Shown here: piece after piece, positions 38,850-62,893 of the stretch | Position numbering within the stretch: the stretch's first letter is position 1 | How the letters are laid out: the number at the start of each line of letters is the position of its first letter | Assembly: GCA_051362555.1 (NCBI GenBank) | Contig: CM120642.1 | Span: forward strand, 19,964,001 to 20,028,000 | DNA length: 64,000 nucleotides | Direction of reading: 5' to 3' | DNA from: Lingula anatina | Taxonomy: Eukaryota; Animalia; Brachiopoda | The notes under the pieces: model-generated | The model's database searches: none | What the model was told of the DNA's origin: nothing | What the model saw: only the letters and a program-made list of their open reading frames with translations | Program-made: the position numbers and the translations under genes

Positions 38850-41800
38850 TCAATCATCTGTCATTGAAAATCTGTTGCCGCCAGTTGAAAGATGATTAAT
38901 TGTTCGTGTCAGCCGAAGAGTTTGAAATGCTGGTAGAAAATTGTTTGGGCTTCTTACAGGGGCTGATGAGAAGTTCATGTTGACCTCTGTGGACAATATG
39001 GTCTCCAGGGAAGGAGATCTACAAAATAAAGTTACGTAAAATAGGACATTTCTTCATAAATCCTTGGAAAGAGTGACTCAATATGAGAAAATAACATTGT
39101 CGAATTGCTTTATAGTAATGATGAGCCCACTGTCTCACAAGTTATAAAATTTAAAGTATCTGGCAAAATTTAAAATTATAATATCATGTGTGCTGCCTGC
39201 AAAGAAAAAAAAACAATCTACTCTGTGTGTTTAAATGGAGAGGAAATCTTGCAAAAACTTTGTTTTCACACTTCTTTTAGTATATTAAAAACTATAAAAG
39301 GTGCTTACCTGTATGGTTTGTTTTCAAATTTGTGCTGTGCTATCTGTAATAATGTTTTAAAATCCTCTCCACTCTCAAGACTCATTTTGTAAAATGCGCC
39401 ATTTTGGTTCTGTAACAGTTCGTAAGGTGTGTCAAATTCATTTATTCTCCCTGTCTCCAATACCTGGAAATGTTCAGAAAATTTTACATTCACCAAATTT
39501 GGCAATCAATTGTCAATTTACATTGGTTGCACTTTAAAATGATTTGAAAAAGCTGCAAAATCACCTTTCATTTTTTTTATTTACCAAGCACTTGTATGGT
39601 AGCTCACAGCACTATGTGTTTGTCAGTATCAAAAAAAAAAAAAAAAAAAAAAAAAAAAAAGCAGCACTGGTGTAAAAAGGGAGTCTTTTTATTCTGAGAG
39701 TTAAATTTCCCTGTGAGTCACAAAAAAAAGCTGAGTCAGTAAACACATTTTTGCCATATAAGTTCTTACAAAATACATGAACCTTGCTCACTTGAATGTA
39801 TGGTATATTACTCATATATAGCTGCCTACATGTGATCCCTGCTTCAGGCCTACCCAACTACCAGACTTGGCACTGAATGATCCTGAATTCACCAGTAGAT
39901 CGGAACACACTACCCGTTTTCAAGGTGTATGTCAGTAGTGCTTTGAAGTATCATACACTACACTGCTCTTGCCTAGTACGCGATGTGATAGTGATGATTC
40001 TCAGAAGGGTTGGAAAGTAGTGCATCTCATCTCAAGCTTTGTTCGGGGTATGATACTGTAAAATGCACACTGATGCACACCTTGAAAACGGTGAATTCAG
40101 GATCATTCGGTGCCAAGTCTGGTAGTTGGGTAGGCCTGTGCTTCAGATGTTACCTACCATAACTCTGTCATAGTCAATAATTGTGCGTAGTCTGTGAGCC
40201 AGTGTAACTACTGTGCAGTGCTTGAAGAGAGTCTTGATTGTCTGTTGTATGAGAGCACTGCCTCTGAGATATGAGAAAGAATGATCAACAGAAAGTATCT
40301 CAATAGTCAATATGTTTCTGTGGAGTGATTAAAAACTACATTATAAATGATCTGCAATGTAGTTTGTCAGTATTATTCCACATGACTGTGTACAGTATTC
40401 TGAATAAAACTAATTTTTTTTTTTTTTTTTTTTTTTTTTTTTTTTTTTTTTTTTGTTAATCAACACTAAGTCGATAAGGTTACATGTGAAGAAGGAACAT
40501 AAAATATAATTAATTTATCATTAGGAAAAACTAGAAAACTCACTTTTGCACCCTTAGGAAATCTTATTATTTCAATTCATTGCAAAGAACTACATAAAAA
40601 GCTGCAAACAGTGAATAATGTCCTGAGGTAATACAGAGCTGAAAACAATGCCTTTTAGCTATTTATTAAATCAAGGAATATAAAACACTGAAAGTTATAA
40701 AATGCTTAATGCCCTTTGGTTAATATGTATTCATTTAATATTTGTATCGTGTTTATGACTCTGCAAAACATGCAAATTACCTGTTCCTAAAATAAAAGTG
40801 GAACTAAACTATTACCAATTCATGAATCTGTAATTTACCTCCAATCTGTATTTGTTACAGCTTCCTCCAGGACCAGAATTTTTTTCTGTTTCAGTGCTGC
40901 CCTGGCAACACAAACTAACTGGAGCTGTGATGTACTAAAACCACAGGGGTTGTCCGCACACGTCTCTGTGTACAGGTTCTCTGGCAACATCAGAACTTTT
41001 TCTTTTAAATGCACCTGGAAATAAATGTAAAATGTTGTGATTATTATGTATGAAACACGGTCACAGTGAACATGTATGTGTATGATCACACACAAAAAGA
41101 GATTTTGCATGGCCTGTCCCACAAGTTGAAATTGTGGACTAGATGAGGCTGTCTTCTAAATATTATGCATAGCTTATAAATGATGAAATATATTAGTCAT
41201 GTACCACAGTTATTAAGTATACTTGGACAAGTTCTGATCAAATGATAATATGCAATCCTCACAAATACTAAGGGATGTAAAAAAAAACTCATTAAACACT
41301 TGTCTTCGGACTGGATATTCAAAATTATAATAATTTAAACAATCATAAAAATAAATTTGTATAGTTCAACACAGGAGCATTTGCAATATTAAATGATGTT
41401 ATTCAAACTTATCACACTAGTTTATTCTTTCACTTTAGGGATGCATGTAATTCACTTACCCCCTATCATAACAGTTCAAATATTGACCTTATCATTATTA
41501 CCAATCAACAGGGGAAGACAAGGTAACCAACGAAATGATAAAATCAGGGAAGGATTATCTTATAGATGTAATTGTAAAATTGTTCAATATCATATACAAA
41601 AGTGCTAAGTACCCATCAATATGGAACAAGGCATATATAGTCCCTATCCACAAATCTGGTGATGAATCAAATGTTAACAACTACAGGGGAATATCTATTA
41701 CAAGCTGCCTCGGAAAGCTGTACAACTCGGTCCTGTTAAACAGAATTCAAGCACACGCATCCCAACAAGGGGTACCCCTACCTCATCAAACTGGGTTTAA

Positions 41801-62800: not shown

Positions 62801-62893
62801 AGTTTTATGGAGGAATCCTCTGGCAAGACATCATAAATGTCGATGTTTTCTAACTTCCTTTCATAGCCGATTTGAAACAGCTTCTGTGTCCAG
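38850..62893 (-). CDS. ABCC4: ABCC4/MRP4-like ABC transporter (short ABCC, TMD1-NBD1-TMD2-NBD2) with degenerate NBD motifs; 5' exon(s) outside the window
   Basis: 26 in-frame GT-AG exons (minus): 62893-62783, 60235-60112, 59903-59688, 59296-59207, 58631-58468, ~58047-57923, 57470-57221, 56717-56589, 56317-56228, 55838-55647, 55287-55190, 54536-54450, 53939-53843, 53596-53378, 51928-51729, 51361-51007, 50390-50240, 49558-49322, 48742-48642, 45055-44861, 44544-44389, 44080-43991, 41014-40839, 40263-40158, 39463-39309, 39018-38850(TGA). ABCC4-type peptides: [108 protein letters not shown]. It may be a paralog rather than the ortholog. Confidence 0.9.
39845..40138. mobile_element. MITE, 294 bp, ~49-bp TIRs, 5-bp flanking direct repeat TGCTT
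   Basis: tgctt|caggcctacccaactaccagacttggcactgaatgatcctgaattcacc ... ggtgaattcaggatcattcggtgccaagtctggtagttgggtaggcctg|tgctt. The arms continue internally (ccgttttcaaggtgt / acaccttgaaaacgg). Confidence 0.9.
41520..43895 (+). mobile_element. 5'-truncated non-LTR retrotransposon (CR1/L2-group LINE), antisense in an ABCC intron
   Basis: RT ORF without an endonuclease domain, ~430-nt 3' UTR, ending in aataaa(ttgaa)3 at 43876-43895. The 5' boundary is approximate. Confidence 0.88.
41535..43460 (+). CDS. LINE ORF2 remnant: reverse transcriptase plus C-terminal Cys/His domain (641 aa, uninterrupted)
   Basis: RT motifs [59 protein letters not shown]-terminal [15 protein letters not shown]...CRLC...[13 protein letters not shown]. 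Confidence 0.92.
   Translation: MIKSGKDYLIDVIVKLFNIIYKSAKYPSIWNKAYIVPIHKSGDESNVNNYRGISITSCLGKLYNSVLLNRIQAHASQQGVPLPHQTGFKHGHGTSDNIFIFKSIITKFMKGKKKLYTCFIDFSKAFDSVWRNGLLFKLSTLGIRGLMYKNIKSMYENSQACVKTSSGISPAFNTTLGVKQGDTLSPFLFNIFIDDLLRSIDSESAASPDINGIPIQGLLYADDLILMSKTPNGLRQSLEIVENFCNKWRLTVNVTKTKVVIFNSKSKAHSEKFFLYGKPIQEVNKYMYLGLLLNRSGSFTETKNNLLQRATKAFFSLSKSLPLQSNVNTSLKEKLFDTLISPILTYCSEIWGYSVSTDNCPTEKLHLKFCKQILGLHQNVSNYGVYTELGRLPLYTKIQFASVKLWCKIIQMSDATLMKQAYIQEINSYKLLTPYVPPAVHTLRPACMSWSEGIRKILFTFGLGDVWLSQSPPKNFTTIFKQRQTDHFTQICNSKLQANSKLSLFRILNQKCERATYVDKITNYDTLSTLAKLRLSDHKLHIETGRHTRPKTERCDRICRLCTQGVIEDEYHFIFQCPMYKTDRVTFFSKTSFLKADSRPPDSQLCHVFNSANKDTLVSLSNFIIKSFKKRSEVVALLGNS
45277..48609 (-). mobile_element. 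Helentron/DINE-1-like element, copy 2 (~3.33 kb), inside ABCC intron 45056-48641
   Basis: Reverse complement of 30585-34551 from end to end (same 5' hairpin at ~48575-48602, same 3' end acaaggcagcaaagctgtcaaatgtacagaca at 45277, same nested elements), but with two fewer 161-bp units and one fewer 337-bp unit. Confidence 0.88.
49671..49868. mobile_element. Degenerate MITE
   Basis: Imperfect TIRs ctggaggaagtttcacaaaa / ttttgtgaaaccagggccag with internal taag motifs and ccatggtaac. Confidence 0.5.
52010..52555. mobile_element. Foldback MITE, 546 bp, ~155-bp near-perfect TIRs
   Basis: gagcgcattctcaacgaattaagccaggctttacaaagccggtgacctaaaaatggc...ctcggctccg (52010-~52163) is mirrored at ~52390-52555 with about 3 mismatches and one 11-nt indel; flanked by aaa on both sides. 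Confidence 0.92.
53665..53788. mobile_element. MITE family A, partial copy
   Basis: agcagcttcagtaggcatgccagacatc...ggagatggaccgatcctactagatcaatctaggtatgggaatggggtct. Confidence 0.7.
60835..61082. mobile_element. MITE family A copy, reverse orientation
   Basis: agactgggttcccatacctagatcgatctaacaggatcgatccatctc...gatagatcaatccacagtt...agggtct is the reverse complement of the 11201 and 28003 copies. Confidence 0.8.

Follow-up and report, generated by a model that had tools for sequence, protein, structure and literature searches.

A selected ABCC4/CFTR-type gene of Lingula anatina with a remodelled ATP site 2: a candidate pseudo-ATPase

One working ATPase site is regarded as a requirement of ABCC proteins; CFTR, though a channel, has kept it. 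Can the ABCC scaffold be maintained without it? The question is raised by a gene on the minus strand of a 64,000-nucleotide stretch of the genome of the brachiopod Lingula anatina (GenBank assembly GCA_051362555.1, contig CM120642.1, positions 19,964,001 to 20,028,000; the whole stretch is called the window, and all positions below lie within it). The gene has 27 exons and encodes an intact 1365-aa protein of the ABCC4/CFTR type. A first-pass annotation, made from the sequence, had taken it for a selected, non-hydrolysing paralogue with both ATPase sites degenerate. The selected and intact paralogue is borne out by spliced, strand-specific RNA, a 34:1 excess of synonymous differences and a well-folded model of the second nucleotide-binding domain (NBD2); the verdict on the ATPase sites needs to be redrawn. 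A wild-type, strongly selected ABCC protein with site 2 dismantled would count as a naturally occurring pseudo-ATPase of the ABCC family, and would directly test what the ABCC scaffold does on ATP binding alone.

The two ATP sites

In ABCC4, the canonical hydrolytic site 2 is built from the LSGGQ signature of NBD1 and the Walker A and B motifs, Q-loop and A-loop of NBD2. The Lingula protein was aligned with 62 long ABCC homologues, with three unrelated rows dropped, and 113 columns were at least 90% conserved. It departs from 26 of these 113 columns, about twice as many as the next worst row, and the other 38 near-complete rows depart from 12% or fewer. Changes are concentrated at site 2, where 11 of 20 conserved columns differ, against 12 of 80 elsewhere (Fisher p = 5e-4); the 38 homologues complete at the site-2 columns show at most two departures each. 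At site 1, 3 of 13 conserved columns are changed, which is not above background.

The motif changes listed by the first-pass annotation are all present in the sequence. On the NBD1 side of site 2, exon 12 (55190..55287) carries the signature LTVEQ (55227-55213; S524T, G525V, G526E) together with R530K and a one-residue insertion in the X-loop. On the NBD2 side, exon 21 (44861..45055) carries Y1062H in the A-loop (44923-44921), exon 22 (44389..44544) has GKAGAGKK (44532-44509) in the NBD2 Walker [10 protein letters not shown] (R1088K, T1089A, S1094K) and a Q-loop IPE ending at 44389 (Q1134E), and exon 24 (40839..41014) has the Walker B sequence ILVLEEA (40879-40859), in which D1214E stands next to a retained catalytic E1215; A552Y completes the eleven. 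Nine of the residues now present (T524, V525, E526, Y552, K1088, A1089, K1094, E1134 and E1214) occur in none of the homologue rows, with 44-56 rows per column. Exon 24 also contributes the NBD2 signature FSTSQ (40939-40925), which belongs to site 1. Several changes had escaped the earlier inspection: Y1062H, the R530K/T1089A pair, a decayed motif in the third intracellular loop (ICL3) and a shortened N-terminal lasso.

Other parts of that inspection were too severe. The NBD1 D-loop FEYLD (54493-54479), counted as degenerate, matches the D-loop of CFTR and is not a sign of decay. The change of the NBD1 H-switch to VTNR (53899-53888; exon 14, 53843..53939) is real, but Asn occupies that position in 4 of 55 homologues. 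The canonical elements are not confined to the NBD1 Walker A, the NBD1 Q-loop and the NBD2 His: also intact are W405 of the NBD1 A-loop (56600-56598; exon 9, 56589..56717), the Walker B pair D547/D548 (DD; exon 13, 54450..54536), K1093 of the NBD2 Walker A and E1215. Site 1 keeps W405, K438, T439, Q467 and D547, with the intact Walker A sequence GASGSGK in exon 10 (56228..56317) and the intact T439 and Q467 in exon 11 (55647..55838).

Work on related proteins suggests what these changes may mean. Mg2+ is coordinated by the Walker A Ser, the Q-loop Gln and the Walker B Asp (bioRxiv 10.64898/2026.07.07.736899), the last being described as a Mg2+ ligand in PMC5881446 as well; in NBD2 of the Lingula protein the three ligands have become Lys, Glu and Glu (K1094, E1134, E1214), while all three are unchanged in NBD1. 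G526 corresponds to CFTR G551 and is Glu here. In CFTR G551E, as in G551D, site 2 is turned inhibitory by repelling the gamma-phosphate and site 1 stays stimulatory; removal of the NBD2 A-loop Tyr lifts the inhibition, and the G551D/Y1219G channel still opens (PMC4178940). The positions of R530 and T1089, here Lys and Ala, are those of the R555-T1246 pair, co-evolving residues that bond across the closed site 2 (PMC4956468). ABCC transporters run on a single canonical site (PMC7610611), and loss of site 2 would therefore imply loss of pumping. Judged by these residues, productive ATP hydrolysis is probably lost. Site 1 probably still binds Mg-ATP, and the new event would be the loss of site 2, degeneracy of site 1 being common to all ABCC proteins.

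The motif changes are not assembly errors, as the RefSeq L. anatina protein P0295 repeats all those of NBD2, and reads over the NBD1 exons show no motif-residue difference among those listed (40 of 118). P0295, found via exon 24 and annotated 'multidrug resistance-associated protein 4', is the public model found for this gene and is a fragment of only 368 aa; 365 of the 368 residues are identical to the gene model, and the joins of exons 20-27 agree. In an AlphaFold2 model of P0295, NBD2 is intact, with a mean predicted local distance difference test score of 84.9 and a core mostly above 90.

Some observations weigh against so clear-cut a loss of site 2. The boundaries of the motif windows were chosen with the sequence already known, and a direct comparison of site 2 with site 1 gives p = 0.07, or p = 0.12 with another residue set. 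K1093, E1215 and H1246 (the H-switch His, exon 25, 40158..40263) are still present; in a fully dead site this would be unexpected, and it tempers the label of a non-hydrolysing protein, for which the 11 of 20 changed positions otherwise make a strong case. Q527 of the NBD1 signature is retained as well. These four residues would suit a slow or atypical ATP-driven exporter, in which site 2 turns over with its Walker A Lys, catalytic Glu and His, perhaps with K1094 replacing Mg2+; the D-to-E and Q-to-E replacements are conservative single-base changes, and ABCC4 is the best overall match. Such an exporter is nonetheless quite unlikely: the A-loop, the Walker A Ser, the Q-loop, the Walker B Asp, three signature residues and the R/T pair have changed together, to states absent or nearly absent from the 44-56 homologue rows, and several ABC ATPases ceased to hydrolyse ATP when only the Walker B Asp was lost (PMC2217317).

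Transcripts, selection and the 5' end

A gene with so many altered motifs might be a pseudogene, a young decaying duplicate or an assembly artefact. RNA from seven runs (X1-X7) was aligned to 44001-64000 and 52700-64000, one run on both, using about 6% of each run's reads and 25% of those of X7. Nearly all read cover of the exon bins comes from first mates on the plus strand, a pattern that most stranded libraries give for minus-strand RNA, and at least 15 distinct CT..AC joints match the gene model; they occur in X1-X5, are weak in X6 and are absent in X7. Forty-two differences between reads and assembly were classified, comprising 40 of the 118 in 52700-64000 and two exonic ones among 40 listed of 686, the other 38 listed falling in an intronic repeat. 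Among 35 coding differences, 34 are synonymous and one (V462I) is nonsynonymous, against a neutral expectation of about 76% nonsynonymous (binomial p = 1e-20); the ratio of nonsynonymous to synonymous polymorphism, about 0.01, is a rough lower bound, as the listed differences favour well-supported sites.

The synonymous excess marks the gene as selected and not a pseudogene. The first-pass annotation had named lack of expression and a dN/dS near 1 as signs of a young pseudogene, and both outcomes are now excluded. Decay or artefact is largely refuted and has become very improbable: a single 1365-codon frame runs across the 27 exons, the reads are spliced and strand-specific, and a second assembly is 365/368 identical. 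What speaks for it is a long branch in the family tree (1.13), a low read depth, and a signal that is slight or missing in X6 and X7. As a separate observation, the RNA reads over 52700-64000 carry many synonymous differences from the assembly that look fixed, which suggests that the animals sampled belong to a distinct population or a cryptic species under the same label.

RNA also extends the gene beyond the 26 exons (62893..38850) first proposed. The single open frame and the AG/GT ends at 25/25 introns of that model stand; a joint between 62893 and 63618, present in 3/4 runs, adds a 5' exon. This exon 1 (63618..64000), seen from the joint and from read depth, holds the 5' leader, which reaches or passes the window end, and the first codons (MVKL); an ATG at 63631 in a strong Kozak context, with an in-frame stop upstream, begins the 1365-aa protein as MVKLVW... 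The protein is without TMD0, as judged from sequence up to window position 64000, and its lasso is ~20 residues short at the start. A putative lasso remnant in the 5' leader was rejected because 44/200 shuffles score equally well. The leader (63631-63944, minus strand) has four upstream ATGs with short frames of 3-16 codons, a possible brake on translation.

Relation to ABCC4, CFTR and SUR, and possible roles

ABCC4/MRP4 (human 8BJF, bovine 8SX7) shares with the Lingula protein the short ABCC build without TMD0, collinear over the full length (lasso, TMD1, NBD1, TMD2, NBD2), and the Asp after the site-1 Walker B. It is the best ABCC in 6/10 PDB queries (exons 7, 8, 11, 14 and 19, and P0295) and CFTR in 4/10, and Foldseek with the P0295 model returns MRP4 as the best structural matches. 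The best full-length match, at 37.8% identity, is the ABCC4-type protein P0099, which we take to be a fish-like ABCC4. Unlike ABCC4, with its canonical site 2, the Lingula protein has the ICL3 motif decayed and the first part of the lasso gone. In a FastTree analysis of 35 rows, with no CFTR among them, it lies on its long branch among ABCC4-like rows, with weak local supports of 0.14-0.66.

If it is not a pump, what might such a protein do? Tentatively, it may be a passive anion conduit, a low-activity channel or facilitator, tuned by ATP binding at site 1. Site 2 would neither hold Mg-ATP nor close normally: the adenine-stacking Tyr has become His and the Mg2+ ligands Lys, Glu and Glu, the opposing signature Glu would take the place from which the acidic residue of CFTR G551D/E repels the gamma-phosphate, and the cross-dimer bond of the R555-T1246 type would be lost with Lys and Ala in its place. 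Mg-ATP binding at site 1 would act on conformation at equilibrium and without consumption of ATP, as in G551D CFTR with a weakened site 2. More speculatively, E1134 and E1214 may hold K1094 at the place normally taken by Mg2+. A latch of site 2 that works without ATP, between E526 and K1093/K1094, was also considered and down-weighted, the R555/T1246-type bond being lost too.

The conduit reading draws on an analogy with G551D-type CFTR, in which site 1 is by itself able to support gating. The kept sequon of the fourth extracellular loop, the normal fold of the NBD2 model and the CFTR-like local motifs also speak for it. CFTR G551D/G551E with a weakened site 2 (G551D/Y1219G; PMC4178940) and the Lingula protein are alike in an acidic signature position 4, the lost NBD2 A-loop Tyr and, putatively, site 1 as the ATP handle. 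They differ in that the former are disease or laboratory channel mutants, whereas the Lingula state is a fixed wild type under purifying selection; the charge change behind G551D cystic fibrosis is part of its normal state. Anions are predicted as cargo because the inner vestibule has remained basic: by alignment numbering, the vestibule positions of CFTR named in PMC8640958 (K190, R248, R303, K370, R1030, K1041 and R1048) are 7/7 basic here, and the K95 position is basic too.

A conduit faces difficulties of its own. ABCC4 pumps likewise have basic residues at the vestibule positions (PMC8640958), which therefore do not point to a channel. A protein unable to close site 2 may rest inward-facing and conduct nothing. 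The R domain (~200 aa, with protein kinase A sites) is absent, its place being taken by a linker of ~100 aa with no Pfam match in exons 15-16, and the CFTR pore residues R334, R352, Q353 and D924 are Q, L, L and A, with R933 also absent. Beyond these points, no dibasic protein kinase A site ([RK][RK]x[ST]) occurs in the whole protein, and CFTR S573 and the LSHGH/LSEGQ signature of NBD2 are replaced by D548 and FSTSQ. The R domain and its phosphorylation sites, R334, R352, Q353, D924, S573 and the LSHGH signature are CFTR marks (PMC8640958), and by these sequence tests the Lingula protein is not CFTR. CFTR also differs in keeping its hydrolytic site 2.

The resemblance to CFTR is local. CFTR (human 6MSM, zebrafish 5W81, chicken 6D3R) is the best-scoring ABCC for exons 10, 13, 17 and 22, and the NBD1 His is lost in both proteins. 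The D-loop is of the CFTR type ([11 protein letters not shown] against DSPFGYLDVLT in CFTR; PFEYLD in exon 13), and the sequence before the NBD1 Walker A in exon 10 is RGQLLVVAG, against RGQLLAVAG in CFTR; neither pattern, PF.YLDV.T or RGQLL.VAG, occurs in the 295 proteins compared, ~60 of them covering NBD1. Eleven CFTR-shared residues that are rare (at most 15%) among homologues were counted in four windows with CFTR alignments, a biased sample in that these windows were seen because CFTR ranked high there; among them are Y552 (0/56), V555 (3/56), A431 (3/54), P1121 (1/50) and K1124 (0/50). Presumably CFTR also shares W349/Q352 in TM6, M998/N999 in TM12 and SFC before the Q-loop. D-loops similar to PFEYLD are found in ABCE1, so that convergence is possible, and the exon-17 region, the sole one with controls, shows no shift toward CFTR. 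Two apparent signals of CFTR affinity were rejected: most ABCC4-like control fragments also score higher with TIGR01271 (CFTR) than with TIGR00957 (MRP), and the exon-17 CFTR/ABCC4 ratio of 0.91 is exceeded by 11/39 control fragments.

In the literature the lamprey sequence counts as the oldest CFTR orthologue, and ABCC4 as the paralogue nearest to CFTR (PMC8640958; PMC10910009). Against this background a bolder and rather unlikely proposal is that the Lingula protein descends from the CFTR stem lineage, preserved in an invertebrate as a pre-R-domain sister of CFTR and turned into a hydrolysis-free anion channel gated by site-1 ATP binding alone, with the ABCC4/CFTR duplication preceding the protostome-deuterostome split; it would be a natural G551E equivalent with a plugged Mg2+ site. 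If the CFTR-like motifs were due to descent and not convergence, the CFTR lineage would reach back further than that lamprey orthologue (PMC8640958, PMC10910009), and a protein without an R domain would be available for studying how a pump becomes a channel.

Nearly as likely as the passive conduit, and doubtful in its turn, is a non-hydrolysing regulator, sensor or scaffold: an inward-facing protein in which site-1 ATP, and perhaps an organic anion in the pocket, control a partner as SUR does Kir6. The same loss of site 2 would fit this role, as would the decayed ICL3 coupling motif and the ABCC4 pocket-region residues, which align and are kept in TM6, TM11 and TM12; purifying selection that stays very strong in the linker too (8/8 listed changes in exon 15 are synonymous) is expected of interaction surfaces. 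SUR1/SUR2 (ABCC8/9) is likewise an ABCC protein that does not pump, the non-pump role of the Lingula protein being a prediction. SUR has a TMD0, which with the lasso regions holds the partner, and an NBD2 that binds nucleotide; the Lingula protein has no TMD0, which weakens a SUR-like role, and it has a shortened lasso and a remodelled NBD2 and is placed in the ABCC4-like group (SUR chains score ~200-226 bits, ABCC4 306 bits). No partner protein is known.

Searches for relatives of the protein, made as limited single-exon queries, found no orthologue outside Lingula. The exon 11 query gave 24 matches among 50 candidates, the best at 53% and none with the altered motifs; phmmer with exon 17 gave 152 matches, the best 41% among the 150 listed; and the exon 24 query gave only P0295 among 8 candidates, each of these being a weak negative. 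The ESM Atlas search returned generic ABC clusters only, a degenerate D-loop DNA pattern had three matches in metagenome contigs, none in an ABC reading frame, and no ABCC4-like sequence was found in plasmid records. No paper on such a protein or on an invertebrate CFTR relative was found in a literature search with thin coverage of subscription journals and with supplements outside its scope.

Exon structure and surroundings

Of the 26 introns, at least 15 have their splice joints confirmed by RNA and 7 more by the RefSeq model; 4 (5/6, 16/17, 17/18 and 18/19) follow from frame and homology only. Frame, splice ends and RNA define exon 2 (62783..62893), with the second half of the lasso motif, exon 3 (60112..60235), exon 4 (59688..59903), which spans TM1-TM2, and exon 6 (58468..58631), with TM3-TM4. 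Exon 5 (59207..59296; ICL1) is placed by frame, splice ends and an RNA joint to exon 4, and exon 7 (57923..58048; ICL2) by frame, splice ends, RNA and homology. Exon 8 (57221..57470) encodes TM5-TM6 and keeps the equivalents of CFTR R303, R347, P355 and K370, without R334, R352 and Q353.

NBD1 ends in exon 15 (53378..53596), which continues into an acidic linker without an R domain; the linker passes into TM7 in exon 16 (51729..51928). Exon 17 (51007..51361) comprises the fourth extracellular loop, in which the sequon N757 is kept, TM8, the decayed ICL3 motif (N832T, R833C, D837N) and TM9. TM9-TM10 follow in exon 18 (50240..50390), ICL4 and TM11 in exon 19 (49322..49558) and TM12 in exon 20 (48642..48742). 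Exon 23 (43991..44080) is given by frame, splice ends and the RefSeq fragment; NBD2 ends in exon 26 (39309..39463), and exon 27 (38850..39018) holds a C-tail predicted to be disordered and the stop.

The introns contain several repeats. In intron 23, a LINE-like element (41811-43460, plus strand) runs antisense to the gene, and its 549-aa open frame matches reverse transcriptase PF00078. Intron 20 holds a repeat of ~3.5 kb (45273-48610) with an inverted copy 12 kb away (30584-34555), 92-96% identical over 1.5 and 2.4 kb and with internal tandem units of ~160 and 337 bp; the intronic copy has heavy RNA read cover, mostly on one strand. Inverted arms of ~160 bp in intron 15 (52010-52163 and 52391-52555; 91.5%) resemble a miniature inverted-repeat transposable element and have reads on both strands. 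A dispersed family of short repeats of ~250 bp, abundant in RNA, occurs at 11199-11462, 28002-28253, 53667-53780 and 60833-61083.

The window also holds other genes. A DUF268 (PF03269) methyltransferase-like gene (35124-36595, plus strand) lies tail to tail with the ABCC gene. The OCA2/P-protein gene (17555-28745, plus strand) matches the L. anatina RefSeq protein P0175 exon by exon, one exon being 100% identical. A multi-exon C2H2 zinc-finger gene (449-9107, minus strand) resembles TFIIIA/GTF3A, with a weak PF22110 match, and has a short Thr-rich tandem repeat in its last exon.

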